From the IMG/VR virus record IMGVR_UViG_3300009159_000032: DNA of 64,000 nucleotides. One strand, given 5' to 3'. The notes beneath the pieces were generated by a model. The model was given only the letters and a program-made list of their open reading frames with translations, had not been told where the DNA came from and did no database searches. The position numbers and the translations under genes are program-made. Numbering within the stretch: position 1 is the stretch's first letter; the number at the start of each line of letters is the position of its first letter. Source of the DNA: a virus. Positions 15,501 through 64,000 of the stretch are shown here, in pieces.

Positions 15501-18500
15501 TTAGGATCTGCAATTATAGTTGCAACATTATAAGCACTTATTTTTCTTTCTACTCCTGCAGGAACTGTAGTTTTATTTTTTACCCAATAGTAATAAAAAT
15601 TACTAAAAGAATTAGATACTGGGTCCCATACTTGTTTTACAGATACAACTGAGTTATCAGAAAATTTTGGTTGTCCGCTTATGCTTTGGGCAAGGCCGTC
15701 AGTTGTATCAGATATCGCTAGCCACTGGCTAGGCAAGTAAGGAGTGCCCACCCATTCATAGACGTCAATCATCGATCCCGGAAACATACTATTCCAATTA
15801 TTTTTTCTAAATTCTAATTCGCCTTGTTCGTACCAAGTATACTTTATCGAACTTAGATCCCACCATAATTCGCCAACATGTTCATCTAACCAATTAGCTG
15901 TAGTATCTACAGATACGCCTGGAAGTCCAATAGAATAAATTGCAGGATCAAATAATGATTTATAACGAAGTTCTTGGTCTGCTATTCCTGAAATTTTTCC
16001 TTTAATAGGATCAATAATTTCTAAGTAATCGACAATACTATCTGTCTCAGTATCGATAGTTTTTATATTTTTAATATTATCTAGATCAACCAATGCTGTT
16101 TCTTCACGTAATGGGTACCAACTGTCTAAAGTGGTAGATTTAGATTCATATAGATACAACGCACCTATTTGATTGTTAATATAATTTTGGCCTGGTGCTC
16201 CTACAGTTATGTAACTATCAGCAACAAACATACTTTTTCCGTATATTTGATCAGTTGATACTCTATTATCAAATAGTTCTTCGGCAAAAACAAATTTATT
16301 TTGTTTTTTAACAAAAGAAAATACTGCACCCGAATTTTTTACTGTGGAATAAAAATTCACTGTGCCTGAGTCAAATGTTGTAGCAGACTCTCTAAGAGCA
16401 CTGTTTGAATCAAGAACATATTTAGGTGAGCCTGATTTTTGTTTTGAAAACACATCAAAGGTTAGGTAAGGTCGATGTGTAGACCCAATACTTGATACTA
16501 CTAACGTTTTTCCGTCAGACGATAAAGACATGTTAGCACCAAAATCATAACCATTATCAATAAACGGATTGCTAATTATTTGATTTAAACTATAACCAGT
16601 TAAATTTCCTATAGAATTGTATTGTGCTTCAAACACAAAAATCTTTCCAACTTTACCATTATCGCCCAGTGCTTTGGGTGCTGACACATATAGATAATCG
16701 CCAGAAGTATCCAATAATATTTTTTCTCCAAAACTATCACCAACTTTAACGTGATCAATTAACTCTGCATCAGTTATATCTTTTGTTATAATGATAGCAT
16801 TTGGTAAGAATGATGCTAGTCTTACATACCCACCGCCAATTGCTGACACTGCTAGTCTTTTAACTTGTCCTTTGTTTACTGCTATGCTATGACCGTATCT
16901 GTCGCCTGATGCAGGCACATGCCCTGACTGTCCAAAAAAGTTGATTACTGTGCTTGTAGACACAACATTGGTGCTTAAATTTAATGTAGTATAGAATATT
17001 GTTCCAGCATCATTATTAAATCCTGGGGCTGATACAACAACAAATTTAGAAAGATTAGAATTAGATGACACTGCTACATCCCAACCAAATTGTGCATATG
17101 ATTGAGGTATTGGACTTGTGAATACTGCTCTGTCAACAGCAGCCGCTGTAGGATTTTCAAAATCAAATTTAACTATCTGTATCAATCCTTCTTCAATTTT
17201 ATTTGATGCTGTGCTATTAGGATTCACAGTTGTAAAATGACTAGATGTATTTCCATACTTAACATGAGATGCCTTAGGTGCTCCGACTAATACCCACCCA
17301 CTGTCTTCGTCAAATTCAATTGACTGGCCAAACATAGGAACATTTGTTCCTGTAAAATATGTTGAGATTGACGAAGGATTAATATTTCTACCACCTGCAT
17401 AAATTAAACCGTTGGCGCCCTTGCCTGATTTATTATAAGCATACAATCTTCCGTATGATGGAGAAATTGATGATTTATAATTAGTTGAGGCAACAATTAA
17501 TTTACTACCTTTACTATTTCCTACTATTGAATACCCGTATTGTTGATTACTGTTAGCACCGAAATTTGTAGGAGAATCATAAAGTGTAGATTCAAAATTA
17601 TTAGTTTTTTGATATACTGCCCATTTTCCAGACCCACTATCATTGACCCAAATTTTTTCTTTGTTCCTAAATTTGTCAAAGGTTGGTAAAGTAGTTAGAT
17701 CATCAAATGAATCAAATCTAGAACTAACAAATTTGAATAATATTCCTATCTGAGGATCGTACGGTGTTGTTAAATCAGTTATAGTTGATTCAAGAATTAT
17801 TTGATTTAGCTCTGGTATAGATTCAACAGTATATACTCCATCAAGATACGGATCAAATTGTGAAATACTAATTATATCTCCAACAGATAGATTATGAAAA
17901 GAATCTGTAGTAACTAATAATGACGATCCAGGAATATAAATTGCAACATCAATTACTTTAGATGATAACTGTGTATAACGATAAACTCCCCAGTCTCCAT
18001 TATTTTCAAATCCAAGCCAAACTGTGTCACCGTCTTTAAGGGCTCTATTATTTGCAATATCTAATAGACTGTTTTTATTAAAAGCTGTTGCTGTAATATC
18101 ATCAATCCTCACATAACCGGCTACAGGAAGAGTACTGGCAATATCGCTGTACTTAGTTGTAGTACTAAATGGGGAGTTTCCATAATTATCAGGTTTTATT
18201 TGTACGTCTTTTGATTCAATATAAGAAATAAAATCTTTTGTAACGACAGGTTTTGTTTGAACAAAGTTAACAATCTGTGGATTTTCTTTAAACTCTGATT
18301 CATTTAAATTAAACTCAAGAGTTTGATCTGTAGAATACGCTCCATATTCGCCAACTCGAACTGCCCAGTCTTCGTAAAAATCTATATAACTTCCTTGAGA
18401 AATTACACTGGCTTTACTTAATTTTTCAACTGTATTCCTTGTGCCTTTTTCTTTGATAAATCCTTGATAAAACTTGTACTGACTAATTGCATTTGTAAAA

Positions 18501-21500
18501 ATATTATTAAGATAGGGTCTTGGTGTATATCCTATCAAATGTTGAGCCAACGATTGTTGACTTTGATCAAAGTTATCAATGTCTAAACTATAAAAATCGT
18601 CAAACTGTGCAATTTTATAATCAAAGTTTGGTAATAATTCTGCAACAGGTTTGCTACCTAATATTGACCATTGGTTGAAATTAAAAGTGTCTCCTCCAAT
18701 AATTTTTGTAATAGCAGTATAGTAATTGCCTGCATAAAATACAACATTACTTGCAGCATAATCGGTATATGGAGTCCAAGATGTAATATCAGCTTCGTCA
18801 TAGATAAAGCCAGGACTGAATAAATCTCCGTTCCAATTGTCAGTAATAAACCCTGATAGTTTGATTCGACGTTGTCTATATCCTGACTCATTATCGTATA
18901 TGACATCATTAAAATATGTATGATTGTTTAATACCAGTGTATGTTCTTTTTGTATTAAATTTAATCTAACAAAATAAATCCCGTCAGTGGTGTTTAGAGT
19001 TTTTAATGTAAAATCATTTTCTTCTCTATATGTTGAAATATTTTTACTTGATAACACTGCACCGTCGGCTTTTAAAACACTGTATTCGTAGAAAATATTA
19101 GTCAGGCTATCAACTACGGCTGAAGAATTTTTAAATTTTAATTTTTCTGCAAAGGGACTTAGTGTAATTACACTGCCTATTGCCCAATTTTGAGTTGACC
19201 AATAAATCAATTCTTTAGCTGAAAATTTCCAATCTACAATTTCTTGTACTTCTTTACTGTACTCATCAAAAATCAAACCTTGAGATTCTAGCCAGGTGCC
19301 ATATCCTAGTAATGCTGCATACACATCGTTGATATCTGCATATTCAATCCCGTAAGGTATTAAGGTAGTTACTTTTTCAAACCTTTTAGGATTTTTAATT
19401 GTTACACCGCCAATTTTAGGTAATTCAACAAGAGCTTGAAAATTTGCTGTGTTAAAAACTTTACCAGAATTATGACTTACTTTTACTCTGTAAAACTTTT
19501 CAAGATGTCTTACAATCTGTCCTTGTTTGTAAAATCTATAGCCATCATTGGTACTAACGGACACTGTATCAAAACCAGACATAGGATTTGCAGCAGAAGG
19601 TGCCCAATCAACATACGGAGAACTTTTTCCTCCTATTGTAATTGCAGGATCCACTGCTGTGAACACAGGCATATAACAAGTAAAATAAGGATTTTGTGTG
19701 TCATATCCTTTGATAGAATATCCCTTGTCCGTTTTTTGGACAATTACTCCACTAACTCCAATACTTTTTACTGGGCTACTTTTATCAAGGAAAATAGAAT
19801 AATCATTATCTGAAAGAAAAACTCCAGAACTAGCACTAGACGGACTAACACTGTCAATGGTAATTTTAAACTTGTCTTTATTAACAAAACCGCCTATTTT
19901 ATGTGTAAGTTTTGAATATACAAATGATGTTTCTGTTTTTAATTTTTCAAGATAGTTTCTATTTTTTTGTTTTCCTGCCTCAATTAAAAATACACTATAA
20001 CCAGATCCTAACAATTCAGAACCGGCTACTGTGTCTTGATAAAATTTTAAAACATCAAAACTATGAAAATCTACATTGTCTCCATATGTATATTGTCCAG
20101 CTAGATTCTTTTTGGTTCTGCTTGTGTCAAATAATAACGAACTATATGATGCTGGATCGGTCAAAGCCATTAATATCTGTACAGCATATGGCCATAAACT
20201 ACTTCTTCTCCACGATGTTTCAACTGGTCCTTGATCTCCAAATTCCCAGTTGGCATCAGTAGTTAGGTAGTCTACTCCGGTAGCAATATTTGCCTGTGTT
20301 GGCATCAATAATTTTCCGTTGTTGTCAACGGGTATAATATCTGCAAGACCGGGACGTGCATAGAGACTATTAATAGCTGTATTATTGGGATCTTTAACTA
20401 GTCCCTGTTCTAAATCATTCCATAAGATTTTATTACCTCGAGTGTATGGTGCAGGTCCGTATTCATTTTCCCACCATTGAGGTTGTTCTCTAAAACCCAG
20501 CATCTCCCATGGATGGGTATGAGGACGGTCTGTGTCAAAAAAGTATTTGTATGTAGCTCTCCATCCTCCAGGTAAAGGTAGTTTAGTAACTAAATCTTTC
20601 CCTGATTTAATATTCCAAGTCTTTGGATTATCAGACGCAGTTGTATTTTGTGAAAAATTAAATCCGTAAAATGCATCCCATTTTAAAAATTCTCTTGCAA
20701 GTATTGCGTTAATTTCTTTAGGTGCATAATCATTATTTCTAAATGCTCCAGGAAATACAGTATCAATATTAACTAATTCTGAGTCGTATTGCACTTTAAG
20801 ATTATTATAAATTCTACGCTCATACTCAAGAATCACAGCATCTCGGCTGTCACCAAAAGCAATCATTATACTGCCATCGTGCCCCTGGATCACTGTTTGA
20901 GATTCAACATAGGTATCGTCAACAAATATTTTTGGTTCAAATTTAGGATACAGTCCTAATTTAGTAGGTGTTGGCGGAATATAACATCCACGAGTGCTTG
21001 CATAGTCATCGACTCTAATCACATCACCTTTTGTTAAAGGAACTTTAATATGTACACTAGAATCATATAAATCAAATTCATAATCTGCACCGTGTAATAA
21101 CTGTGTTATATTGCCAATAGAATCAGTGTGATAAATGATTACTGATCTTTCAGATATTGTAGTTAAATTAAAATTAGACAATAAAGAATAGACAGTATTT
21201 CTACTATCGGTTACTGTGTAATTTCTTGTAACTGCATCTGTTCCATACCCTATCATATCGCTCATAGAATAAGGAAACATAACATCCTTGTTTACATTAA
21301 CATTATATAATGCAATATCAAGTGCTCTTGATGGAGTATACACTCCTGCTAGATTTGCAATCTGTTCTATTAATGCTAATTTAAATTGATTATAATGCTG
21401 TCCAACTAATCTTGTTGCAGAAATTAAATTAAACTCGTCATTAGCTACAAAATAACCTGCAAATACTAAAGGATTTTTATTAGAAATTAATCTTGTTCCA

Positions 21501-23887
21501 TATATTGAAGAATCTGGCAAATCACGTAGATTGCTAACACCTGGAAACATTCCCAAAAATTCCGGATGTCTATCAACTATTGTCTTGACATGGTCAGATA
21601 ATTCCGATAAAGTAAATTCAGATATAGGACCATTTAACGGGTTATTTGTCCACCCAGGAGAAGTCTCGTAATATCCAGTTGCACTAGGAATTGCAGAAGT
21701 GTTAATTCTAAACAACACCTTATCGCCGACTGTTAATGCTGATTTAAAAACTACAGAATAATTTCTACCAGAAGCAAATAAAGTATACTCATCTCCTAAA
21801 ACTTTTTTATCCTGATTAACATATACTTCAATGTTCAATGTTTGATAACCTGGATTATCAACTGCGGTAATTTGAAGTTCAGTAGTTGACTCAGAAATAA
21901 TATTATATTGTAGAATTGGTATCTGATATTCTGGTGTTTCTGACCAAACATTTACAAATGTAACACTGTTACGAGATATATTTTGTTTAATAAAGCCGCT
22001 AGAAACATTTATATCATAAGAAATATTATTATCAACAATAGTATTCGTATCGTTCATAAAATAGTTTTCAAATAGATAGTATGCTTGATTAGCTACATTT
22101 TTATATTTTAACGGGAAACCTAAAACTGAGTCTTTGATTCCTGAGCCGATCGCATATCCAAATATTTTTGTTCCTACAAAACCGCCTTTATACACAGATT
22201 CGTCACTGTAACTTATGCCAGTATTGTCAAATATATCAAATCTTGGAGCTTGATTAATAGCAGTTTTTTGCTGTGCTAAAATCCACTCAGTTCCGTTAAA
22301 CCACCAATTGGTGCCTTTATACTCTGTACCTTTTGTAACTGTAACTGAATCGCCCAATAAAGGCGTAACATCGTCTGCTTCTTCTAAACTAATTCTAAAT
22401 TTATCTTGTATTTTAACAAAGTTAACAACAAATGTTTTTCCATTAACAAAATTATCAGCGTCTGCTGTAAAAATAATTCTGTCACCTTGACCTATTTCTA
22501 CTCCGTCTACATAATAACCTAACTGTCCTTCAATTTCAGTAAAGACATCAGTAGTTGAAGTATCAATAAATTGAATATTAGGTTTAGCAAAACTTCCAAA
22601 ATTATCAAGCTGAAGATTAGCTTCAAACTCTATGATTGGTCTTTTGGCTTTATTTGCTACAGGGAATAGTAAAGGAATTTTATTTGCTTCAGCAGATATT
22701 TTAATTACATCTTCATGGAACCATCTATTATATCGAGACCAAGGATTTTTATCTTGACTAGCTCTATTAATAGTAACGTATTCTGGGGTTTCAGGAAAAT
22801 TGTTTGACTGATCAAATGCGTATTGATCAAACGCTTCAGTGTCAAATCTTTCGTCAAAAATAGATGTAAATTTTTCAGGTGTTTCTAAACTATCAATGTC
22901 AATTAATTTAATTTTATCTCCAACACCTTCAACGATAAAATGTTTATTTTTATATTCTGTAGGAGTAACATTGCCAACAAAGTCTATCACTAAACCGTTA
23001 GTTAATTGTATTCCATTATAAGAAGTATATTGTTTTTTTCCTACAATTTCTTTTTCTACATCAATACTACTGTTTTCTTCAATGTCTTTGATAACAAATT
23101 CGCCGCCGTTTAATTTGTCGGTTTCAGATACAAAATACAAAATTTTAGGTGATGTATTATCAATTTTAAGTGTAATGATGCCTTTTTTAATACCGTTATT
23201 TTCTGTGACTCTATACGGTGCTTCTTTACCGTCAACTCGACTTGTCTTAATCCAAAAAGGATTCTTAGAGTCTACATTAAACTTATAAGTCACTCCTCGG
23301 TATAATGTTAACTGCGGTGCAGGAGTTAGTCCGTCGGGTGTAAACACAAAATAAAAGCCGTCAGCGGTGTCTGTAACATTATAGGTGCTGACAATTTCTC
23401 TTTGCTGATTTCCTATAGCAACAGAGTCAGGCCCGTTAGGAAGCCAATAATAATTTTCAAAATTGACAAATTTATCCCAGTCAATATGTGGATTGTAAGA
23501 ATAAAATTTAGGTTTAAATAATCGATCTAATCTGCTAACATTTGCGCCTTCGAATTCAAGTTGATTGATAAGATCGTCATAAGAAGTTGATTTAATAATT
23601 TTTAAAATTTCATCTGTTATTACCAAAGCAGGTTCTAATTGATAATCTTGACGCAATTTTGAATTTGAATTAAGATAAAAATCTTTCTCAACATTATACG
23701 TTGGTGTGATTTTTCCACCAACCCAACCGTCAACTCTTTTTAATTGAGGAGGCTGTATTAACTGATCAATTGTTCCTGATAAAAATTTTGAATTCTTATC
23801 TGTTCTAAACAATACAGGCAACAGATTAGCCGATTTTCTCATCGGGTTATTATTTTTATCTGTTACTTGTGATAAATCATCTGACAT
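9578..23887 (-). CDS. Giant baseplate wedge protein (gp7-like position), 4769 aa, with beta-propeller and fibre modules
   Basis: Uninterrupted 14.3-kb ORF directly downstream of gp6; N-terminus [22 protein letters not shown]; FG-GAP-like repeats ([44 protein letters not shown]). Confidence 0.7.
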
Positions 23888-45142: not shown

Positions 45143-46846
45143 ATGTCTTGGAAAAAATACTTTACACCTGTTAATACATCTGGATCCCTAAGTCCGTTGA
45201 GCGGATCTGACTACAAACCTACAGGTAGCAAACTAAATTACAGCAGTTACTTGCCAGATGTTTATTCTGGATTTCCAAATCGTGTTGATCGTTATAATCA
45301 GTACGATACTATGGACACAGACAGCGAAGTTAATGCTGCCTTAGATATTCTAGCAGAGTTTTGTACACAGCTAAACGAAGAAAACTCTACACCTTTTCAA
45401 ATCTTTTTCAAAGATCAAGCTACTCCGACTGAAGTTAAAATTATTAAAAAATATCTACAGCAGTGGACTAGATTAAACAAATTTCAAAAACGTATCTTCA
45501 AAATTGTTCGCAATGCGTTCAAGTACGGAGATGCGTTCTTTATTAGAGATCCAGAAACTAATGCTTGGTTCTACGTTGATGCAAATAAAGTTGATAAAAT
45601 TATTGTCAACGAGTCAGAAGGCAAGAAACCTGAGCAGTATGTTATCCGTGATTTGAATATAAACTTTGCTAACTTGTCTGCTACGCAGATTAGTCCTAAC
45701 AGTACTAATGCACCTATTCCTAGTGCTTACTCCGGACAGAGTGGCGGCTCACGTGCTATGACAGGCAGTTATCCTACAAACGTAGGAACACGTTTTCAAA
45801 TGAATCAAAACCAGTGGGCAATCAATGCTGAACACGTAATTCATTTGTCAATGAGCGAAGGGCTAGACAACAATTATCCTTTTGGAAACAGTCTTTTAGA
45901 GTCAATTTTCAAAGTCTACAAGCAGAAAGAATTGCTAGAAGATGCTATCATTATCTATCGTGTACAACGTGCTCCTGAGCGTAGAGTGTTCTATATTGAC
46001 GTAGGAAACATGCCTAGTCATTTGGCAATGAGCTTTGTAGAACGTGTTAAAAACGAAGTAAATCAACGCCGTATCCCTAGTGTTACTGGTGGCGGACAGA
46101 GTGTAGTTGACAGCAGTTATAATCCGTTGAGTATCAATGAAGATTATTTTTTCCCGCAGACTTCAGAAGGTCGCGGATCAAAAGTTGAAATTTTACCCGG
46201 CGGAACTAACCTAGGAGAAATTGATGATCTTAGATATTTCACTAATAAACTTTTTAGAGCCCTTCGTATACCTAGCTCTTATCTGCCTACTGGCCCGGAT
46301 GATGGAGGTAGTTCTTTCAATGATGGACGAGTAGGCACTGCTTACATTCAAGAACTGCGTTTTAACAAATACTGTGAACGTTTACAGAGTCTGTTAAACG
46401 AATCATTTGACTTGGAATTTAAAACTTACCTAATGAAAAAAGGTATAAACTTTGATCCAAACGTATTTGAATTACAGTTTAATCCTCCGCAGAATTTTGC
46501 TAGCTATCGTCAAACTGAAATGGACACAGCACGGATCACGGGCTTCACACAGATGATTGCCATTCCTCAAATCAGTAAACGTTTTGCCCTTAAACGCTTC
46601 TTAGGATTGACCGCAGAAGAGATGGCAGAGAACGAAGATCTCTGGAAAGAAGAAAACGGTTTGGACAAGAAAGCAGTTAGTGCCAGTGCTGAACTGCGTG
46701 GTGCAGGAGTTACATCAGGCGGCATGGAAGCTGATATGACTGGACTTGATCAAGCTGGGGAATTACCTCCAGAAGGTGCCGACCCTGCTGCTACTGCTGC
46801 AAATCAACCTGCTGGACAAACACCGGCTCCTCCACCGCCTGCTTAA
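45143..46846 (+). CDS. gp20: Portal protein, T4 gp20-like
   Basis: KQKELLEDAIIIYRVQRAPERRVFYIDVGNMP..EDYFFPQ..GRGSKVEILPGG.NLGEIDDLRYF..LFRALRIPSSYL. Confidence 0.95.
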   Translation: MSWKKYFTPVNTSGSLSPLSGSDYKPTGSKLNYSSYLPDVYSGFPNRVDRYNQYDTMDTDSEVNAALDILAEFCTQLNEENSTPFQIFFKDQATPTEVKIIKKYLQQWTRLNKFQKRIFKIVRNAFKYGDAFFIRDPETNAWFYVDANKVDKIIVNESEGKKPEQYVIRDLNINFANLSATQISPNSTNAPIPSAYSGQSGGSRAMTGSYPTNVGTRFQMNQNQWAINAEHVIHLSMSEGLDNNYPFGNSLLESIFKVYKQKELLEDAIIIYRVQRAPERRVFYIDVGNMPSHLAMSFVERVKNEVNQRRIPSVTGGGQSVVDSSYNPLSINEDYFFPQTSEGRGSKVEILPGGTNLGEIDDLRYFTNKLFRALRIPSSYLPTGPDDGGSSFNDGRVGTAYIQELRFNKYCERLQSLLNESFDLEFKTYLMKKGINFDPNVFELQFNPPQNFASYRQTEMDTARITGFTQMIAIPQISKRFALKRFLGLTAEEMAENEDLWKEENGLDKKAVSASAELRGAGVTSGGMEADMTGLDQAGELPPEGADPAATAANQPAGQTPAPPPPA

Positions 46847-50063: not shown

Positions 50064-51239
50064 ATGTCACAACTATTAAATGAAAGATGGTCAGAGACCA
50101 AAGAAGCTCTGCTTGAAGGCCTATCAGGTAACCGCAAGTCTTCTATGAGCGTTTGCTTAGAGAATACACGCAAGTACTTGGCTGAAAGTGCAACTTCTGG
50201 AGCTACAAGCTCTGGTAATATCGCAACACTTAACCGTGTTATCCTTCCAGTAATTCGTCGTGTTATGCCGACAGTTATTGCTAACGAAATCGTTGGTGTT
50301 CAGCCAATGACAGGCCCAGTTGCCCAGATCCACACTCTACGTGTTCGCTATGCTGATACCAGCAGTGGTGACAGCGTAATGGCTGGTGAAGAAGCACTAA
50401 GCCCATTCAAAATTGCTGCTGGTTACTCTGGCGCAGGTTCTACTGGTAAGGCTCAAACAACAGCCGTACTAGAAGGCCAACCAGGTAAGCGTATGAGCAT
50501 TCAAATCTTGAAAGCACCAGTCGAAGCTAAGTCACGCAAGCTATCAGCTCGTTGGACATTCGAAGCTGCTCAAGATGCTCAAGCAATGCAAGGTATTGAC
50601 ATCGAAGCAGAAATCATGGCTGCTCTTGCTCAAGAAATCACAGCTGAAATTGACCAAGAAGTTCTAGCTTCTTTACGTAGTCTAGGCACAGTTGAACAAA
50701 CTTATGACCAAGCTAGCGTATCTGGTACAGCTACATTCGTTGGTGATGAACACGCTGCTCTAGCTGTTCAAATCAACCGTGTTGCTAACTTGATTGCACA
50801 GCGTACACGTCGTGGTGCTGCTAACTGGGCTGTTGTTTCTAACCAAGCTCTTACAATTCTACAAAGTGCTACAACAAGTGCATTTGCTCGTACCACAGAA
50901 GGTACATTCGAAGCTCCTACAAACACCAAGTTTGTTGGTACATTGAACAATGCAATGCGTATCTATGTTGACGCATATCTTGCTGATACAGACGACAACA
51001 ACCAATGTCTAATTGGTTACAAAGGACCATCTGAAGCAGATGCAGCGGCATTCTATTGCCCTTACATTCCTCTAATGAGTTCTGGTGTTGTTCTTGACCC
51101 AGCAACCTTTGAACCAGTAGTTGGCTTCTTAACACGCTACGGCTATGTTGAGTTGACAAACACTGCTAGTTCTTTAGGTAACGCTGCTGACTACCTAGGC
51201 AAAGTGGCTATCACTTCTGCTAACGTTAGCTTCCGTTAA
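50064..51239 (+). CDS. gp23: Major capsid protein, T4 gp23-like
   Basis: LPVIRRVMPTVIANEIVGVQPMTGPVAQIHTLR; KSRKLSARWTFEAAQD; AFYCPYIPL..DPATFEPVVGFLTRYG. Confidence 0.97.
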   Translation: MSQLLNERWSETKEALLEGLSGNRKSSMSVCLENTRKYLAESATSGATSSGNIATLNRVILPVIRRVMPTVIANEIVGVQPMTGPVAQIHTLRVRYADTSSGDSVMAGEEALSPFKIAAGYSGAGSTGKAQTTAVLEGQPGKRMSIQILKAPVEAKSRKLSARWTFEAAQDAQAMQGIDIEAEIMAALAQEITAEIDQEVLASLRSLGTVEQTYDQASVSGTATFVGDEHAALAVQINRVANLIAQRTRRGAANWAVVSNQALTILQSATTSAFARTTEGTFEAPTNTKFVGTLNNAMRIYVDAYLADTDDNNQCLIGYKGPSEADAAAFYCPYIPLMSSGVVLDPATFEPVVGFLTRYGYVELTNTASSLGNAADYLGKVAITSANVSFR

Positions 51240-55282: not shown

Positions 55283-58200
55283 ATGGCCGTAGGTCGTATT
55301 ACAGGCCCGCTACTCGCAAGCAATCTGCGAAGAGACGGTGTCGACATAGCGTTTGAAACAGATCTACTGTACCTTGATGTAGTCAATGGCCGTATTGGCA
55401 TCAAGAAAGATACACCCCTATTCGAGTTAGATGTAAACGGCACAATCAACGCCCATAGGATAATTGTTAATACTGCCACTATTGGCCTAGTAACAATTAC
55501 CAGTACTACTTCTAGTAGTACAATGTCCACAACATACGGACCAATCTCAATCATTCCAGGCGGAAATGATCAAATTAATTTAGATGCAAATACTTTTGTT
55601 AAAGGCGATTTGCATGCCACCGGTGATATTACTGCTGACGGAAATATTCGATTAGGTGATACAACAGGCACTGATACACTGATAATTGATGCCGAAATCA
55701 AATCTGATGTGTTACCTTATATTAGCACAGGCTCAGTTGAATTTGTTGGAACAACCACCGCAACAATTTTTGTTACTAACACTAACATAGTTTCTGAATT
55801 TAGTTTAGGTAATACTAGTTCTTATTGGAACAACTCATATTTAGAAAATATTTTTACACGCCAGATTGACACTGCTGGCACTGCAACTGATATACAATTC
55901 TTTCCAGACATTCCGTTATTAGAAAGAACACTGAATAAATCAGTGACCATTAATGGGGATATTCGTGTTTACGGCGGAAATCCAATTGGTACGTTCCCAG
56001 TTGTAAACAACATTCTATATGTAAATGAAAACGGTAGTGACGACAATGACGGCCGTGCAATGGACTCTAGTCGTGCATGCCGTACAATTACTGGAGCAAC
56101 TAATAGTCCTTATTTTAAACAAGGCACAATTATTAGAGTAGCGCCGGGATACTACGCTGAAAATAATCCAATTAGATTATTGCCATATACATCGGTAGTT
56201 GGAGACAGTCTTAGAGCAGTGTTTGTTGAAGCAATGAATAAGACAGTAGACTTGTTCCATGTTAATTCTGGAGTATATATCACTGGTATGACTATGTTAA
56301 ATCTTCGCAGAGGAGAAGTAACTAGATATGCACCAGGTGGTGCAGGAACTTATACTACAGGGGCATATTGTGTGGCCTTCCCCCCATTACTTGATGATCC
56401 TATTGATGTATTCCACAGTCCTTATATTCAAAACTGTACCAATCAATCAGGTCCTTGGTTGTATGACGGTACAATGTTTTTACCAAATCAGACTGTACAA
56501 ATTCCTTTAGTGGTTGCAACTTCAACTTATATTGCAAATACTACTTCATTATTAGTAACAATACAGCCAGAAATTACTGCACAGCAACTAGAAATTGGAA
56601 TGTCAGTTAACGGATCTGGAATAACAATTGACGTTGATGTACCCGTTGCTACAATTGAATCTATTGAAAATCCAATTAATGGATATCGCTCTGCAAAATC
56701 ATTACTAACTTTAAATAAAGAGTTCATTAAAGATGAAGTGATTGCTTATGTTTACAATACATTTCCTGGATTCAGTTTTGACGAAACTGTTTGTCGCAGA
56801 GACACAGGATATATTGTTAATGCACTGATAAATGATGCCATACTAGGTGGTAATCAACAAATAGTTGAAGCAGGCCGTGCATATTATGAAGGCAACGTTC
56901 AAATACTAGGTGACGAACTAGGCCCGACAATAGCTGCTTTTAGAAGAATTAAAGATATTTCTTTAGATATTGTTGATAATGTTTCTGTAGTTAAAACTAC
57001 AGGCAACTCTGCAACTCAAACTATTAACACTTCAACTACTGGTGGTGCAATAGCTCAAGAAAATATTGTCATGCTAATAGATTTATTAGTTGACATATTA
57101 GAAAATAATGCAGGTTATGAAAATGCTGCTGCATTACTTAACGCTAATCGAGGATTCATTCAAGCTGAGACAGTGGCATTTGTAAACGAAACTTATGTAG
57201 GACAGCCTCTACCAAGTTTTACATATGACAGAGGTAAATGTTTTAGAGATGTTGGGTACATTGTTGATGCTGTTGCTAATGATTTATTATACGGTGGTAA
57301 CCAACAGTCTGTAGCAGCCGGTGTTGCTTATTGGACTGGAAATACTAGTTTAATACCTGGAGAAGTGGACGAAACAATAGCAGGGTTTACATATCTTGCA
57401 TCAATCGTTAGAGATATAGTTTTACAAAATGAATTCAAAGACGGATACCAAACAACGGTTACGCAGATAACAAATTTAACCACAGGTAGTAATGCGGCTA
57501 TTGAGTTAGTTGCTCGAAATGTTGGTATTATCAATGATATCTTAACTAACGGAGCAGACGCTGCACCAACTGTTATTAATAATTCGTTAACGCCTAGTTC
57601 AATTCCTGGAGTTACTGCTAGTTACAATTTAATTGTTGCAAATAAAAATTTCCTACAACACGAAGTTGTCAAATACATCGATGTCACGTTTACAAATTTA
57701 GATTTTGAATACAATGCTGTTAAGTGTGCTCGCGATACAGGATTAATTTTAGATGGGCTAGTATTAGACTTAGTTTATAACAGCAACAGTCAAAGTACGT
57801 TTGCTGGACTACAATATTGGGACCACGGTAGCACAGTGATTCCTGGAGAAGAAACAACTACAACAAACGCATTTGCATATTGTAAAACTGCAACTCAAGC
57901 ATTGTTAGCAGCAAACACTTCTCTAAGTACATCGTCATCGATCTTATTAGGACAGAAATTTGATGTATTCTTAGGTATATTGAACACTGGAACTAATGGA
58001 GTAACTGATATTATTGTTCCTAACGGCGTCATTAATTCAATGTTACAGCCTGTGGTTGACTACATACAATCTGAAAAATTGAATATAATTCAAGATACTA
58101 TTGATTGGATTGAAGCAAATAAAACTCCAGGATTCACTTATGACGATACAAAATGTCGAAGAGACATTGGCTATGTATTAGATTCAGTATGCATGGACAT

Positions 58201-61200
58201 ATTACGTGGCGGCAACAGACAAAGTGTACAAGCAGGTGTTTATTACTTTGGATATGACACAACCAGCACAGTACTAATTAACGAAATTCCTCAAACTAAT
58301 GCAGCTTATAAGTTCATGAAATCGTTAATTGACAAAGTTGTACAACGAGTTACTGTTACAAAAACTTATCAATCATTAGTTGAACAAAATACAGATCCTG
58401 TTGGAGCAACTGTACAAGAGTCTAGAGCAATTAGCAACAACATCGATCTGATTAGAGATATAATTAGAAAAGGACCTGCGGCTGCTCCAGAAAGAACACC
58501 GTTACCATTAACCCCTACTACTTCGACTAACATTGCCCGTGCATACGACATACTAACTGTAAATAGAGATTTCATTGTTGCAGAAGTAGTTGAATTTGTC
58601 AATGCAACTTTTATTCAACCATACGCATTTAATTATAATGAAAGCAAGTGTTTTAGAGATGTGGGATTAATTGTTGATTCTATTGCTACAGATATTATTC
58701 GTCGATCAAATACTAATTCATTAGAAGCAGGTTTAGCCTACTGGGACGGTGCAGTTAGTGTTATTGAAGGACAATTAAAAGAAACATCTGGAGCAATTCA
58801 ATATGCAAAAACAATAGCTCTAGATGTTATTGCAAATAATCCTGTTACAAGTTTCTATCAAAAGTCTGTAATTTATACTATACCAGGCACTACCTCCACT
58901 ACTAGTACTAGCGTAGTACAACAAAATATTAATTCTCAATTGCCAGGCGGAGAAGTTGCAAGAGATTTAGTGGACAGTAACTTTAATGCAATTACTACCA
59001 TTATACAGAATGGTCCTGCATACGCACCTACAAGTACAAATTCAACCCTTACACAATTTATTATTAATCTAAGCACTGTAACTAATAGTTCAGCGGTAGA
59101 AGACATTTTATATTTTGGAGAAACTTCAGTTTACCCAGTTGAAGATAAAAAAATGCCAGGAGAGTGGAGTGAAGACGGCTATGCTGACAGAAGAATTGAT
59201 CCTAATGGTTCAGGCGGCGGCGCCCTAGTAGACGGAAATGCTCCATCTCGTCGTAGTCCAATTAATTCTTTTGTATTTGATGCGTTTACACAAATTACTC
59301 AAGGCGGTCGAGGCATCCATATCATTAACGAAGGGTACGCACAGCTAGTATCTGTGTTTACAATTTTTTGTAATGTTGCCGTTGAAACTGCATCAGGCGG
59401 CATTGCTTCAATTACTAATTCAAACAATAACTTTGGTGACTTATGTTTGTTATCTACTGGTTACGGTTCAAGAAAGTTCGGCGGAACTATTTACAATCCG
59501 GCTAATCTTGCCTATAACGAATTAACTAATGCGTTTGAACCAAATGAATATTTCCCTCAAGGATATTTCCCAACCAATCAACAAGTATGTGTATTTGTTC
59601 CCGACCCTGCAAACAGACCTCACATTAGTTTAGTAATGGAAGTAGTTCCTCCTGATCAATATGTTAACTATGACGGTCAAACTGTTCCGTATGTTAACGA
59701 ACAAGGATTCCCAGGATTCTTAACAGCAATTGTTAACACTTCAAGTCTAACAACCAGTAGTTATACCATTGAGGCAGTAGATGTTACAGGTGTTGCGGTT
59801 GGCCAAACTGTATACATACGTGACCAATTTGGCTATGAAGCAGACGACAACGGTGCAGGAACTCCATACTTATCAACTGGTACTATAGTAATTGATGTAA
59901 CATATCAAACCATTACTTTAAGCAATCCTATTCTTCAAGGCGGCGGCCAATATGCTAACAATAACTATTTTAATATCTACTGTTGTGGCAATGCTTATTA
60001 TAATGTTATCACAAGTAAAACTTCTGCAAGTCCTTATCCAACTGGACAGAGTAAAATTTTAGGACAAGAAACTGAGACGATTGACGCAGTTAATTACTTA
60101 AGAAACACTGCGATTTCTATAGTTAATAATCAACCCGTAAACGCGATTAACAACACTACAGAACAAACTTTTAATTTATTAAAAACAGGCAACGGCACTG
60201 AATCGTTTATACAAGACCAATTAGGAATTATTACAAATGTGATACTTTCAGGACCTCAAGCAGCTCCTGCAGAAACTACAACTGGTACACTATTAACTAA
60301 TAGATCAGGAGCAATTAGCTTACTTGAAGCAAATAAAATTTTCTTACAAGATGAAGTAGTTGCATATACTGATACAATATTTGGCGGATTTACATACGAT
60401 GAAGGCAAGTGTTCAAGAGATACAAAATTAATTATTGATAGTATTGCTATAGATATGCTATATCCTGGAACAAGCCAAAGTACTTTTGCTGGCTTACAAT
60501 ATTGGGATCAAAGTGAAAGTGCAATACCTGGCGAAGAAACTACTACAACAAATGCTATTACCTATGCTAAGGGACTAGCCGCAACAGTTGCATTAAGTGC
60601 AGGAGGATCAACTCCGTCTGGGATTGTTACTTCAAGATTTAACGATGTTTTAAGTATTATTGCATCTGGAACTGTAGGAATAACCGATGCTATTACATCT
60701 AACGGATTACCAAGTACTAATGTTAATACACTAGCAGCGTATACTGCTGTTGTTAATAATACATCAACTATTATTTCTCAAACGATTTCTTATATTAATT
60801 CTAATAATCCAGGATTTGTATATGATCAAACAAAGTGTCGTCGAGACTTACACTATATTTTAGATAGTGTAGCATTTGATTTGAAACACGGCGGTAATAG
60901 ACAGAGTGTAATGTCAGGAGTCTACTATTACAATTATAATAGTACTAGTACTGCTATCACTAACGAGATACCTCAGACAGTTGCTGCCTATAATTTTATT
61001 AAAGCAATTATTGGAGATGTAATTACAGGAACTCCTATATCACCAAAGTACCAAACAGTTGAAGTTCAGATAACAAACTTAACTCCGGCAACTGTCGCAG
61101 AGACCGCTACATTACAATCTAAAATTGATATAATTACAGACATCATTGCCAACGGCCCTGATGTTGCAGGACCAAAAGTTCCTGTAGGACTAACAATATC

Positions 61201-61804
61201 AGCAAACACTAGCACAGTAAATGCATTTAGTTTACTAATGGCTAACAAAAATTTTATTGCCGCAGAAGTAATTGCTTATATTGCAAATGAGTTTGGCGGC
61301 TTACAATACAACAAACAAAAATGTCGTAGAGATGTTGGCCTAATGATAGATGCATTGATTGCAGATTTATCTACTGGCGGAAACTTTAGAAGTGTTGAAG
61401 CAGCAAAAACATATTATAGCAAAGACGGAACATATCATATTGTTACATTAGAAGATAATGTAAGAAATCAATTATTATTTGTTGACGGTAGTACAGTTAA
61501 TTTCTATCAAAGAAGTTATCAAAGTGCCAGCGGTTACTTATTTGAATATTGCGGTGCAGGCACGCAGTACGGTGCATTGCCTCAGGTAGGTAGAGTAGAT
61601 CCAAATCAGACTAAAGAAGTAGTTCAGTTAAATAATGGTAAGGTGTTCTTTACCTCAACTGATCAAAACGGCGATTTTAGAATCGGACCAACACTTGTTA
61701 TTAGTCAAGCAACTGGTGTACTATCCGGAAGAACATTTGAAAAGAGTTTATTCGCACAGATGACCCCGTTCATCTTAGCGGTTGAAGCAGGTGGTGGAGA
61801 ATAA
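55283..61804 (+). CDS. Large tail fibre/spike, 2173 aa: pectate-lyase-like beta-helix with eight inserted phycobiliprotein-like repeats
   Basis: ILYVNENGSDDNDG..CRTITGA..GTIIRVAPGYY.E..PI.L..SVVGDSLR beta-helix start; 8x Y/F-x3-C-x-R-D repeats; C-terminal FFTSTDQNGDFRIG. Confidence 0.8.
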   Translation: MAVGRITGPLLASNLRRDGVDIAFETDLLYLDVVNGRIGIKKDTPLFELDVNGTINAHRIIVNTATIGLVTITSTTSSSTMSTTYGPISIIPGGNDQINLDANTFVKGDLHATGDITADGNIRLGDTTGTDTLIIDAEIKSDVLPYISTGSVEFVGTTTATIFVTNTNIVSEFSLGNTSSYWNNSYLENIFTRQIDTAGTATDIQFFPDIPLLERTLNKSVTINGDIRVYGGNPIGTFPVVNNILYVNENGSDDNDGRAMDSSRACRTITGATNSPYFKQGTIIRVAPGYYAENNPIRLLPYTSVVGDSLRAVFVEAMNKTVDLFHVNSGVYITGMTMLNLRRGEVTRYAPGGAGTYTTGAYCVAFPPLLDDPIDVFHSPYIQNCTNQSGPWLYDGTMFLPNQTVQIPLVVATSTYIANTTSLLVTIQPEITAQQLEIGMSVNGSGITIDVDVPVATIESIENPINGYRSAKSLLTLNKEFIKDEVIAYVYNTFPGFSFDETVCRRDTGYIVNALINDAILGGNQQIVEAGRAYYEGNVQILGDELGPTIAAFRRIKDISLDIVDNVSVVKTTGNSATQTINTSTTGGAIAQENIVMLIDLLVDILENNAGYENAAALLNANRGFIQAETVAFVNETYVGQPLPSFTYDRGKCFRDVGYIVDAVANDLLYGGNQQSVAAGVAYWTGNTSLIPGEVDETIAGFTYLASIVRDIVLQNEFKDGYQTTVTQITNLTTGSNAAIELVARNVGIINDILTNGADAAPTVINNSLTPSSIPGVTASYNLIVANKNFLQHEVVKYIDVTFTNLDFEYNAVKCARDTGLILDGLVLDLVYNSNSQSTFAGLQYWDHGSTVIPGEETTTTNAFAYCKTATQALLAANTSLSTSSSILLGQKFDVFLGILNTGTNGVTDIIVPNGVINSMLQPVVDYIQSEKLNIIQDTIDWIEANKTPGFTYDDTKCRRDIGYVLDSVCMDILRGGNRQSVQAGVYYFGYDTTSTVLINEIPQTNAAYKFMKSLIDKVVQRVTVTKTYQSLVEQNTDPVGATVQESRAISNNIDLIRDIIRKGPAAAPERTPLPLTPTTSTNIARAYDILTVNRDFIVAEVVEFVNATFIQPYAFNYNESKCFRDVGLIVDSIATDIIRRSNTNSLEAGLAYWDGAVSVIEGQLKETSGAIQYAKTIALDVIANNPVTSFYQKSVIYTIPGTTSTTSTSVVQQNINSQLPGGEVARDLVDSNFNAITTIIQNGPAYAPTSTNSTLTQFIINLSTVTNSSAVEDILYFGETSVYPVEDKKMPGEWSEDGYADRRIDPNGSGGGALVDGNAPSRRSPINSFVFDAFTQITQGGRGIHIINEGYAQLVSVFTIFCNVAVETASGGIASITNSNNNFGDLCLLSTGYGSRKFGGTIYNPANLAYNELTNAFEPNEYFPQGYFPTNQQVCVFVPDPANRPHISLVMEVVPPDQYVNYDGQTVPYVNEQGFPGFLTAIVNTSSLTTSSYTIEAVDVTGVAVGQTVYIRDQFGYEADDNGAGTPYLSTGTIVIDVTYQTITLSNPILQGGGQYANNNYFNIYCCGNAYYNVITSKTSASPYPTGQSKILGQETETIDAVNYLRNTAISIVNNQPVNAINNTTEQTFNLLKTGNGTESFIQDQLGIITNVILSGPQAAPAETTTGTLLTNRSGAISLLEANKIFLQDEVVAYTDTIFGGFTYDEGKCSRDTKLIIDSIAIDMLYPGTSQSTFAGLQYWDQSESAIPGEETTTTNAITYAKGLAATVALSAGGSTPSGIVTSRFNDVLSIIASGTVGITDAITSNGLPSTNVNTLAAYTAVVNNTSTIISQTISYINSNNPGFVYDQTKCRRDLHYILDSVAFDLKHGGNRQSVMSGVYYYNYNSTSTAITNEIPQTVAAYNFIKAIIGDVITGTPISPKYQTVEVQITNLTPATVAETATLQSKIDIITDIIANGPDVAGPKVPVGLTISANTSTVNAFSLLMANKNFIAAEVIAYIANEFGGLQYNKQKCRRDVGLMIDALIADLSTGGNFRSVEAAKTYYSKDGTYHIVTLEDNVRNQLLFVDGSTVNFYQRSYQSASGYLFEYCGAGTQYGALPQVGRVDPNQTKEVVQLNNGKVFFTSTDQNGDFRIGPTLVISQATGVLSGRTFEKSLFAQMTPFILAVEAGGGE

Positions 61805-61815
61805 AGGAGATATAA

Positions 61816-62202
61816 ATGGCATTAATTCCATTAAACACGTTTAAGACAAAGACAAAAGTATTAGATACAAATACAACAGCAACAGCATACGTAGCACCTA
61901 TTGGTGTCACTAGCATTGTACTCATGGCACAGGTTGCTAATGTTGATGCAAACAATGCACATACAATTACATTCAGTCATCATAGACGATTTAGAGTGTT
62001 GCCCGATGCACAGGGTAACAATGCTCAGGATCCAAATGTGACAACAGAATTGGTTATGGATTTTGAAGTTCCGCCAAATGATTCTGCTAGTTTAATTACA
62101 GGTAAAATGATTTTAGAAGCACAAGACAGCATTAGAGCATATTCTGACACAGCTGGTACAATGAAATTAGTATTAAGTATTCTTGAAACAGCTAATAACT
62201 AA
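61816..62202 (+). CDS. Small beta-sandwich fibre-associated protein
   Basis: 128 aa; VPPNDSASL..KMILEAQDSIRA; SD AAGGAG. Confidence 0.65.
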   Translation: MALIPLNTFKTKTKVLDTNTTATAYVAPIGVTSIVLMAQVANVDANNAHTITFSHHRRFRVLPDAQGNNAQDPNVTTELVMDFEVPPNDSASLITGKMILEAQDSIRAYSDTAGTMKLVLSILETANN

Positions 62203-62224: not shown

Positions 62225-64000
62225 ATGCCACGTTTATTAAGTAATAGAAAACCAGTTCTTCGACCTGAAGATCTAAAAGCAGATAGATGGGATTATTTAA
62301 ATCTCCAGAATGCCCAGCCTGCATTGGGTTTGGCACCTGCTAATAATGCTGGCTATACTTTGCAAACAGATGCAGACGGAAAAGTTACATGGTCTGATAC
62401 ATTAGGTCGTTTACAATTTGAAAATCAAATTATTGGAGCTACAGAACAAAACGTCGATATTGAAATCACTAGTTTAGATACTAATTCTGATATTGTATTA
62501 TCTCCTTACCAACAAGTCAGAATTCGTGGCGATCTAGCAGTAGATCAAAATGTAGAAATTACCGGCGACATAACAGTTACTGGAAATCCGTTAGGTACTT
62601 TTCCTATCAATGACAGAACTTTGTATGTTACTCCTAACGGTGATGACCGCAATGACGGAACAGCACTCGATGCTAGCCGTGCTTGCCGTACAATTAGCGG
62701 TGCTGTTCGCAGCCCTTTCTATACAGAAGGTACTACTATTAAGGTAGCAGCCGGTGTATATTTTGAAGATAATCCTATTCCTCTAAAGAGAGATAGTTCT
62801 GTTTTAGGTAACGATTTAAGAACAACATTTGTTGAACCTTTAAACAAAGATTTAGATTTATTCCATGTAAATTCTGGTGTATATATTGCACAGATGCAGA
62901 TGCGTAATCTACGTAGAGGTGCTGTAGAAAGATACGCACCAGGCGGCGCTGGAACTTATACTACAGGTGCTTACTGTGCAGCATTTCCTCCTAATTTAGA
63001 AAATCCTATTAACGTATATCATAGTCCGTACATTCAAAACTGTACCAACCAATCAGGTCCCTGGTTAAAAGATGGTACAATGTTTGTACCTAATCAAATT
63101 GTACAAATTCCTGTAGGTGCCGGCACTTCAACTTGGGTAGCAAATGTTAATACTATTACTGTAACTCTTTTTACTGGCACAGTTGCAGTTGGTATGGCAG
63201 TTAATGATGCTGCCAACGAAGGTTATAGAAATGCTCAACTGTTATTGCAGGCTAACAAGCAATTTTTACAAAGTCAAACAGTGGCCTATGTTAATGACAC
63301 ATATCCTCTATTAGATTATAACGAAGCACTCTGTTATCGAGATGTAGGTTATATTATTGATGCAGTTTCAGGTGATGCTAGATTTGGCGGCAATAAACGA
63401 AGTATTGAAGCCGGCCTAGCTTATTGGAGAGGCAATATTAGTTTAATTGAAGGACAACAAAACGAAACTGCCGATGCTATCAATTATCTACGTGACGTAA
63501 GTTTAGAAATTATCACCAACACTACTGTTACAAACATTTTTAACACGTTGACCAATCAGGTTCTTAATTTAAATTACGACAAAGGTGCAGTTGTTTCAAC
63601 TCGAGTATCTAGTAGTTTTGGAGTAATAACTTCAATTATACAAAACGGTGAAGGTGCTGTTCCAAATACCGTTGAAGATTTGTACGGATTAATTTACCCA
63701 AGCGGCTTAAGTCCTAACAGTCCAAATTCTGCATCTACAATTACTTCGATTACTACGGTTACTACAGGCACTTACTTAATAACATTAAGTACTGCCACAG
63801 TATCACCTAGCGACAATGCTACATTGTATTTTGGGGAAACATCAGTTTATCCTTTCTTAGATGCTGATATACCAAGTGAGTGGACATTAGCAGACGCCGA
63901 CGGCATATTTGCAGATCGTCGACTAGATCCTAACGGGTCAGGCGGTGGTGCCCTAGTAGACGGCAATGCACCATCATTGATCTCTCCAATTCAATCGTTT
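62225..64000 (+). CDS. Paralog of the 2173-aa fibre/spike, partial (runs off the window end)
   Basis: Not in the ORF track. Hand translation is open for 592 codons: MPRLLSNRKPVLRPEDL..LYVTPNGDDRNDG..CRTISGA..RYAPGGAGTYTTGAYC..HSPYIQNCTNQSGPWL..CYRDVGYIID..DRRLDPNGSGGGALVDGNAPS. Confidence 0.85.
   Translation, partial: MPRLLSNRKPVLRPEDLKADRWDYLNLQNAQPALGLAPANNAGYTLQTDADGKVTWSDTLGRLQFENQIIGATEQNVDIEITSLDTNSDIVLSPYQQVRIRGDLAVDQNVEITGDITVTGNPLGTFPINDRTLYVTPNGDDRNDGTALDASRACRTISGAVRSPFYTEGTTIKVAAGVYFEDNPIPLKRDSSVLGNDLRTTFVEPLNKDLDLFHVNSGVYIAQMQMRNLRRGAVERYAPGGAGTYTTGAYCAAFPPNLENPINVYHSPYIQNCTNQSGPWLKDGTMFVPNQIVQIPVGAGTSTWVANVNTITVTLFTGTVAVGMAVNDAANEGYRNAQLLLQANKQFLQSQTVAYVNDTYPLLDYNEALCYRDVGYIIDAVSGDARFGGNKRSIEAGLAYWRGNISLIEGQQNETADAINYLRDVSLEIITNTTVTNIFNTLTNQVLNLNYDKGAVVSTRVSSSFGVITSIIQNGEGAVPNTVEDLYGLIYPSGLSPNSPNSASTITSITTVTTGTYLITLSTATVSPSDNATLYFGETSVYPFLDADIPSEWTLADADGIFADRRLDPNGSGGGALVDGNAPSLISPIQSF

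Follow-up and report, generated by a model that had tools for sequence, protein, structure and literature searches.

Why would the fibre of a virus carry, many times over, the residues by which an antenna protein holds its pigment? Phycobiliproteins are known as subunits of the antennae with which cyanobacteria, red algae and cryptophytes harvest light. The question is raised by a 64,000-nucleotide stretch of viral DNA from IMG/VR record IMGVR_UViG_3300009159_000032 (hereafter the window), in which a stop-free frame of 2173 codons at 55283-61804 on the + strand encodes a 2173-amino-acid protein, P0001. An initial annotation, made from the letters alone, had noticed eight Cys-x-Arg-Asp (C-x-R-D) motifs in this protein and had compared their surroundings with the bilin site of phycocyanin. 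Profile comparisons and predicted structures now indicate that the repeats around these motifs are a virus-borne branch of the phycobiliprotein family, with its globin fold, and we hold it to be very highly probable that they are homologous to phycobiliproteins and have retained the bilin site.

A scripted count on the translation of P0001 returned exactly eight C-x-R-D motifs, at C504, 653, 815, 958, 1123, 1710, 1852 and 2014, with Cys codons at 56792, 57239, 57725, 58154, 58649, 60410, 60836 and 61322, as first reported; the amino acid composition of the protein predicts 0.03 such motifs by chance. Of its 19 Cys residues, 8 lie in the motifs and 11 outside. Alignment of the copies bears out the proposed repeat context, A..LL..NK.FI..EV.AY ... 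KCxRDxGYIxD...DL..GGN.QS..AG..YW. When the window was scanned in all six frames, one extra full copy, the ninth, appeared in the next open reading frame (ORF; Cys codon 63332) and none elsewhere, while a profile search recognized a partial copy, comprising the C-terminal half only, at amino acids (aa) 1566-1653 of P0001. Aligned as 150-residue units, the nine copies are 24-38% identical to copy 1 and share five invariant columns: the Cys, Arg and Asp of the motif, a second Asp 11 residues on, and a Tyr. The parts of the gene are listed below; A2 denotes a 35-copy repeat alignment for which further copies were gathered from IMG/VR loci, and gp093 is a repeat-free homologue of P0001 in Synechococcus phage SynMITS9220M01, its residue numbering referring to the C-terminal 969-aa stretch translated here.

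55283..61804, + strand: gene for P0001, a putative 2173-aa fibre-type virion protein; open frame; PHROGs 5342, 4527, 17885 and 701 (tail fiber, short tail fiber, virion structural)
55283..56662, + strand: N-terminal non-repeat segment, aa 1-460, in which aa 218-407 form part 1 of the conserved core (alignment to gp093)
56663..57100, + strand: repeat 1, aa 461-606, Cys504; A2 profile hmmsearch E 1.9e-44; motif CRRD
57104..57544, + strand: repeat 2, aa 608-754, Cys653; A2 profile E 5.1e-47; modelled with AlphaFold2
57593..58045, + strand: repeat 3, aa 771-921, Cys815; A2 profile E 1.5e-40; motif KCARD
58034..58465, + strand: repeat 4, aa 918-1061, Cys958; A2 profile E 3.7e-41
58511..58942, + strand: repeat 5, aa 1077-1220, Cys1123; A2 profile E 4.3e-43
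58943..59977, + strand: central non-repeat segment, aa 1221-1565, in which aa 1310-1415 form part 2 of the conserved core (alignment to gp093)
59978..60241, + strand: partial repeat, aa 1566-1653, without C-x-R-D; A2 profile positions 70-155, E 3e-9
60284..60703, + strand: repeat 6, aa 1668-1807, Cys1710; A2 profile E 2.8e-39
60707..61150, + strand: repeat 7, aa 1809-1956, Cys1852; A2 profile E 2.7e-43; second copy modelled with AlphaFold2
61193..61669, + strand: repeat 8, aa 1971-2129, Cys2014, extending into the C-terminal segment; A2 profile E 1.3e-38
61403..61783, + strand: C-terminal conserved segment, aa 2041-2167, part 3 of the core; 48.5% identity to gp093 aa 837-967; matches the C-termini of PHROGs 17885 and 3442

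Searches with the protein as a whole were uninformative. A Pfam scan of P0001 assigned no family and gave only a sub-threshold match of its N-terminal segment to a Bactofilin-like beta-helix; the central non-repeat segment (aa 1221-1565) likewise has no Pfam family, phmmer with all of P0001 against PDB sequences produced no match, and neither did megablast against phages. A protein-language-model look-up of P0001 offered weak, unrelated names (DUF4214, BrxE), which we discarded because recognition was below the method's own reliability level.

Profiles of the repeats led to a single family. Run against 177,635 distinct PDB sequences, the nine-copy profile gave 12 matches at E <=10, all 12 to phycocyanin alpha chains, and the A2 profile gave 92 matches, every one of them to a phycobiliprotein, the best being C-phycocyanin alpha at E 2.4e-6. 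In the alignment with phycocyanin alpha (CpcA), K-C-x-R-D-i-G-y-I of the repeats lies over Lys83-Cys84-x-Arg86-Asp87-Ile-Gly89-Tyr90, and the Gly-Gly turn follows at an equal distance from the Cys. The phycocyanin alpha sequence given in the initial annotation proved correct, as 21 cyanobacterial cpcA genes yield a consensus that includes AVYxKFPYTT. When cpcA and cpcB genes were taken from cyanobacterial genomes for comparison by hhalign, the repeats matched cpcA with a probability of 94.5 (E 8e-8) and cpcA plus cpcB with 94.9, over 123 collinear columns that run from helix A to helix H (phycocyanin alpha residues 32-161). The gathering threshold of the phycobiliprotein family PF00502, 22.2 bits, is exceeded by one short member of the phage family, P0006 (26.3 bits), and the copies of IMG/VR record G002 reach 28.5 bits when summed.

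The globin-type fold surmised in the initial annotation is borne out by two predicted models. AlphaFold2, run without templates and with an input alignment of phage copies only, folded repeat 2 (pLDDT 78.7, pTM 0.78) and repeat 7 (pLDDT 72.9, pTM 0.70) as six-helix domains. In an exhaustive structural comparison by VIA-align against 48,161 PDB representative chains, the same eight phycobiliprotein entries ranked first for both models, with Z 13.5-15.8 over 121-150 aligned residues. For the models of repeats 2 and 7, respectively, the phycoerythrin beta chain scored Z 15.3 and 15.8 (150 and 144 residues aligned), far-red allophycocyanin 15.1 and 15.6, and the bilin-binding domain of ApcE 14.4 and 14.5; the remaining entries among the eight are other allophycocyanin and phycoerythrin chains and three ApcE chains from whole phycobilisomes. 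The bilin-binding globin of photocobilin comes next, and heme globin sensors after it. Foldseek with the repeat 2 model returned almost only phycobiliproteins among its top 50 or so matches, at TM-scores of 0.6-0.73; two chains of the DosC globin sensor stand at ranks 30-31. The structural alignments begin at phycobiliprotein residue 25-27 (41-43 in ApcE), which argues that the phage domain is a globin core without the X-Y hairpin; the sequence alignments begin at phycocyanin alpha residue 32-37. Adjacent repeats abut, moreover, and the boundaries from the profile search leave no space for such a hairpin. Each repeat would thus be a 145-150-residue core with helices A to H (A, B, E, F', F, G and H of the globin fold), arrayed between three conserved fibre segments.

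The bilin site is retained far beyond the window. When 1.84 billion representative proteins were searched exhaustively with HMMER, 1637 clusters at 50% identity were recovered at E <=0.001, and the top-ranked ones are giant proteins that hold as many as 37 copies in 6382 residues. Conservation was counted over 1710 copies from the 150 best representatives, which are mutually no more than 50% identical. The motif Cys is kept in 95.6% of these copies, the Arg in 95.3% and the Asp in 98.4%, and two further residues, counted from the motif Asp, are as constant: an Asp at +11 (99.1%) and a Tyr at +27 (98.3%). Helix geometry would have the Asp at +11 share one face of helix E with the Cys, from which it is 14 residues, or about four turns, away. 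Most remaining positions are free to vary. No His occurs among the columns conserved in at least 60% of copies, and heme binding was set aside for that reason.

Departures from the common form were also seen. In one sub-type, D-C-L-D-D takes the place of K-C-x-R-D, so that Arg is replaced by Asp while Cys and Asp are kept (L005:3185-3658, L006:2862-3365 and L009:3188-3688). A small phage in IMG/VR (L012, 36 kb and 92% complete; L013, 26.6 kb) has one copy, at about L013:3881-4321, in which Cys has become Trp and Arg has become Thr with the Asp kept; its record contains neither a heme oxygenase nor a bilin reductase, and the copy may be a pigment-free derivative. A 2992-aa ORF in a 56.5-kb IMG/VR locus (L002) has many copies only about 100-120 residues apart, with profile matches that reach no further than about position 115; a shortened domain, without the last helix, also exists.

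Where, then, might a pigment come from? Relatives of the window's phage were found through the portal protein. Of 18 IMG/VR records that are related or carry repeats, 16 have the repeats. Most complete among the relatives are G003 (19 repeat copies; 328 kb, 92% complete, with a portal 71% identical) and G004 (215 kb, nine copies), and each has genes for a heme oxygenase and a bilin reductase of the ferredoxin-dependent type (FDBR) that are adjacent and overlapping. Among cultured phages, Pelagibacter phage Mosig has the nearest homologue of their FDBR (40% identity). Neither genome contains psbA, which makes a cyanobacterial host improbable for this phage clade; both also lack the S-type and T-type lyase families (CpeS, CpeT). 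In the reverse direction, a related FDBR was the sole criterion for selecting 15 large viral records, and repeats were found in 11 of them, including all six with at least 55% completeness; the four without repeats are 20-50% fragments. The association of repeats with bilin genes in the relatives is one of genomes and not of gene adjacency. In G003 the heme oxygenase-FDBR cassette has Hsp20 and ClpS genes ahead of it and a CsgF-like (curli assembly) gene after it (L101, G003:C1:162026-165409). The T4-type late promoter TATAAATA occurs once before the cassette in G003, against 0.76 matches expected, and not at all in G004.

Among 50,697 cultured-phage records, 371 contain repeats, each of them a marine entry or a phage of Synechococcus or Prochlorococcus. 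Bilins are made by such hosts. Those jumbo phages whose head proteins are closest (enterobacterial, Vibrio, Xanthomonas and Sinorhizobium phages) are not among the repeat or FDBR matches. The repeats, in short, were seen only where bilin is available, and the converse fails. Mosig has, directly upstream of its neck genes, a run of genes for a ferrochelatase, three 2OG-Fe(II) oxygenases, a heme oxygenase and the FDBR (MT647606.1, 39650-43977, L102), and it contains no phycobiliprotein-like repeat at E 0.001; its bilin therefore has another acceptor or role.

Cultured cyanophages may connect the repeats with a known phenotype. Adsorption in darkness is seen with P-SSM2 and P-SSP7 and not with P-HM1 or P-HM2, and the light-dependent adsorption of S-PM2 does not depend on host photosynthesis (Liu et al. 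2019, PMC6628666). Repeat matches to the A2 profile in four of these phages are distributed as follows.

S-PM2: 11 repeat matches; CpeT present; FDBR absent; no dark adsorption (light-dependent)
P-HM2: five repeat matches; CpeT present; FDBR present; no dark adsorption
P-SSM2: no repeat matches; CpeT absent; FDBR present; adsorbs in the dark (fewer than in light)
P-SSP7: no repeat matches; adsorbs in the dark

With four phages, two of which belong to another morphotype or lineage, this pattern is a lead and not a test. S-PM2 has two repeat-bearing giants, and its cpeT, placed between gp5 and gp12, is 1.4 kb upstream of the repeat-bearing 3779-aa 'short tail fiber' gene (NC_006820.1, 163952-177267, L309); the cpeT of P-HM2 sits in the same kind of baseplate/fibre block. 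From this gene position, the lyase-like CpeT may serve virion proteins. The RefSeq record of S-PM2 also places a string of tRNA features inside the 3779-aa coding sequence, which looks like an annotation artefact.

Compared with known systems, the phage repeats share with the phycobiliproteins of PF00502, of which CpcA is closest by sequence, a predicted common globin-type fold. They differ in having a shorter B-E loop, invariants of their own (Asp +11 and Tyr +27) and no X-Y hairpin, so that no classical alpha-beta heterodimer can form; the (alpha-beta)3 discs and linker-joined rods of the antenna are not expected for a domain within a virion fibre. Phycobiliproteins are moreover antenna subunits of 160-180 aa, whereas the phage copies stand in tandem, up to 37 together, inside giant virion proteins. 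ApcE, among the top structural matches, resembles the phage proteins in bearing a phycobiliprotein-type globin as one domain of a larger protein, although it has a single such domain, neither in tandem nor in a virus particle, and serves in the phycobilisome. ApcE attaches its bilin without a lyase. So do the BBAG globins of heterotrophic bacteria, described as lyase-independent 'self-assembling biliproteins' in a study that mentions phages only for PcyX (Rockwell et al. 2023, PMC10151467). By that description the BBAGs, whose genes lie next to bilin synthesis genes, are like the phage repeats phycobiliprotein-type globins outside cyanobacteria, but they are single cellular proteins, not in tandem and not in virions.

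In T4-like cyanophages, giant tail fibre and structural proteins (such as S-PM2 p091 and the 3779-aa neighbour of gp12; PHROGs 5342, 4527 and 701) contain the same repeat family; those cyanomyoviruses have genomes of about 180-250 kb, whereas the present phage has a Rak2/GAP32-type jumbo head protein. BFVD models of tail proteins from S-PM2, S-CAM1, S-WAM2 and S-H9-1 match the repeat model; BFVD entries with this fold go under 'uncharacterized', 'tail protein' or 'structural protein', and no database name of a repeat-bearing cyanophage or BFVD protein hints at phycobiliprotein kinship. Viral heme-to-bilin cassettes of hemO with pcyX or pcyA (and alaS) have been described, with a purpose in phages of heterotrophs that is 'still enigmatic'; a bilin-binding globin is raised there only as a possibility, and no viral acceptor protein is named (Wegner et al. 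2024, PMC11480375). The hemO/FDBR cassettes and CpeT are enzymes and not the acceptor, and supply the likely ligand. Cyanobacteriochrome-like GAF folds, which differ from the fold of the phage repeats, were reported from siphoviral cyanophages in a 2025 paper. In the full-text literature searched, phycobiliprotein-like domains are nowhere described from phage fibres or virions.

We propose the following mechanism. Late in infection, each domain would take up a linear tetrapyrrole, phycocyanobilin- or phycoerythrobilin-like, which would be made from host heme by the phage heme oxygenase and FDBR or, in cyanophages, be supplied by the host. The Cys would form a thioether to the bilin, while its pyrrole nitrogens would be held by the Asp and a propionate by the Arg, as at phycocyanin Cys84. 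Attachment might be autocatalytic, as in ApcE and the BBAG globins, given that the jumbo relatives have no S- or T-type lyase, or CpeT-assisted in the cyanomyoviruses, and the product would be a fibre with eight or more pigments per chain. In the most speculative step, this array would give a light response, such as light-gated adsorption, or would protect or stabilize the fibre in sunlit water. That the domains carry a bilin is the best-supported mechanism and, on the conserved site, the modelled fold and the genomic context, a reasonably probable one. A light-related function is a good deal more doubtful. Equally tentative is the wider proposal that the fibres may be bilin-loaded photoreceptor arrays, and as such the missing acceptor that accounts for hemO, pcyX/pcyA/pebS and cpeT in phages, those of non-photosynthetic hosts among them, and the light-sensitive component of adsorption. 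Host-surface mimicry, which the initial annotation had offered among other roles, is without support.

Several observations weigh against bilin-loaded domains. When the window's repeats are taken singly, just one of the nine matches PF00502, at E 0.039 and below threshold. The X-Y hairpin and the partner subunit, which shield the bilin in true phycobiliproteins, are absent from the phage domains, and the lyase families are absent from the two most complete relatives. The hemO/FDBR evidence itself comes from those relatives and not from the window's phage; the FDBR-picked records are mutually related and not independent events, which confounds the co-occurrence; and Mosig and P-SSM2 have an FDBR without repeats, so that the repeats are not the sole purpose of phage bilin genes. 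The main rival is accordingly a pigment-free structural exaptation, in which phycobiliprotein-derived domains would be rigid helical spacers that set fibre length, with C-x-R-D kept for folding or inter-domain contacts. A copy number that expands freely, from one to five between paralogues and up to 37 per protein elsewhere, suits such spacers, as do the existence of a repeat-free homologue, relatives without a lyase and the lack of a strict coupling between bilin genes and repeats. Spacers leave unexplained, however, why the bilin-site Cys, Arg and Asp are retained at 95-99% in copies otherwise only about 25-30% identical, why extracellular virion proteins should keep an unpaired surface Cys, which is unusual, and why the repeats are found only where bilin is available. 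We regard this alternative as rather unlikely, though it is the strongest of the three considered.

A still less probable reading retains the site and changes its chemistry: the cluster of Cys, Arg, two Asp and Tyr might bind a different ligand or a metal, sense redox state or form inter-chain disulfides that lock the fibre. The near-invariant Asp +11 and Tyr +27, which have no conserved counterpart in phycocyanin alpha, show that the site has features of its own. Heme ligation would nevertheless call for a His, and none is conserved; each domain has one conserved Cys, whose motif neighbours are exactly those that hold the bilin in phycobiliproteins; and the genomic association is with bilin synthesis and not with other cofactor pathways. 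Chance or convergence, by which an unrelated helical repeat would merely share a short phycocyanin motif, could draw on the empty whole-protein searches in Pfam and PDB sequences, on the unrelated names from the language model and on a HMMER local alignment of only about 58 columns. It is disfavoured by the tests run here, namely profile matches that are phycobiliproteins without exception (92 of 92, from E 2.4e-6), collinearity over 123 columns in hhalign, and whole-domain Z of about 15 for both of the independent models, in comparisons that rank every other globin below the phycobiliproteins; we consider it very improbable.

Bilin-bearing or not, the repeats reside in what is, by its sequence matches, a tail-fibre-type virion protein. 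P0001 matches PHROGs 5342 (E 4e-103) and 4527 (E 5.5e-80), and its gene lies downstream of those for the portal (45143-46846) and the major head protein (50064-51239) in a window that also encodes gp25-like and T4 baseplate proteins, a collagen-repeat fibre and several giant ORFs. The region at aa 218-407 of P0001 aligns to gp093 aa 478-650 and that at aa 1310-1415 to gp093 aa 631-733; together with aa 2041-2167, these segments are collinear with one contiguous stretch of gp093. Repeats 6-8 are collinear with repeats 3-5 and 43% identical to them. The genes that follow are these.

61816..62202, + strand: small conserved gene, 128 aa; 39% identity (E 3e-23) to gp094 of SynMITS9220M01; PHROG 1276
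62225..64000, + strand: paralogous fibre gene, running off the window; 48% identity to P0001 aa 217-611
63200-63643, + strand: single phycobiliprotein-like repeat in the paralogue; Cys codon 63332

The paralogue has one repeat at the position where P0001 has five, and for this reason, and because repeats 6-8 copy repeats 3-5, the arrays are expandable inserts between conserved fibre segments. We did not adopt a model of the arrays as loop insertions in one globular core, as the three segments could equally be successive fibre domains. The gene after the fibre gene is conserved in SynMITS9220M01 too, and its beta-rich product could be a fibre partner or a chaperone.

Jumbo myoviruses of the Rak2/GAP32/CBB type have major head proteins 67-70% identical to the one encoded here, and a listing of sequencing runs places the stretch in freshwater metagenomes from several studies, with no RNA run among those that contain it and with small-share seawater runs left aside; the source is an uncultured freshwater jumbo phage. 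Elsewhere in the window, a 547-aa protein with collagen triple-helix repeats (7933-9576, - strand; Pfam E 1e-30) adjoins a 4769-aa ORF (9578-23887, - strand), and neither contains a phycobiliprotein-like repeat. Between the baseplate and head modules, metallophosphoesterase and SMC/AAA_23 genes (36764-39563, + strand) form a pair that resembles T4 gp47/gp46 (Mre11/Rad50-like).

These results describe a large branch of the phycobiliprotein family, built as tandem arrays into virion fibres (1637 clusters, up to 37 copies per protein), that is absent from the searched literature. If pigmented, the small lyase-free domains could serve as fluorescent tags. For the biology of the phages, the repeats offer a candidate answer to the purpose of phage-made bilins, left open for phages of heterotrophs by Wegner et al. 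(2024), and also to the light-only adsorption of some cyanophages, which does not depend on host photosynthesis. The role of cpeT and pebS is equally unclear in phages of Prochlorococcus, a host that lacks phycobilisomes. If the fibres are pigmented, they would make these the first virions known with a tetrapyrrole chromophore.

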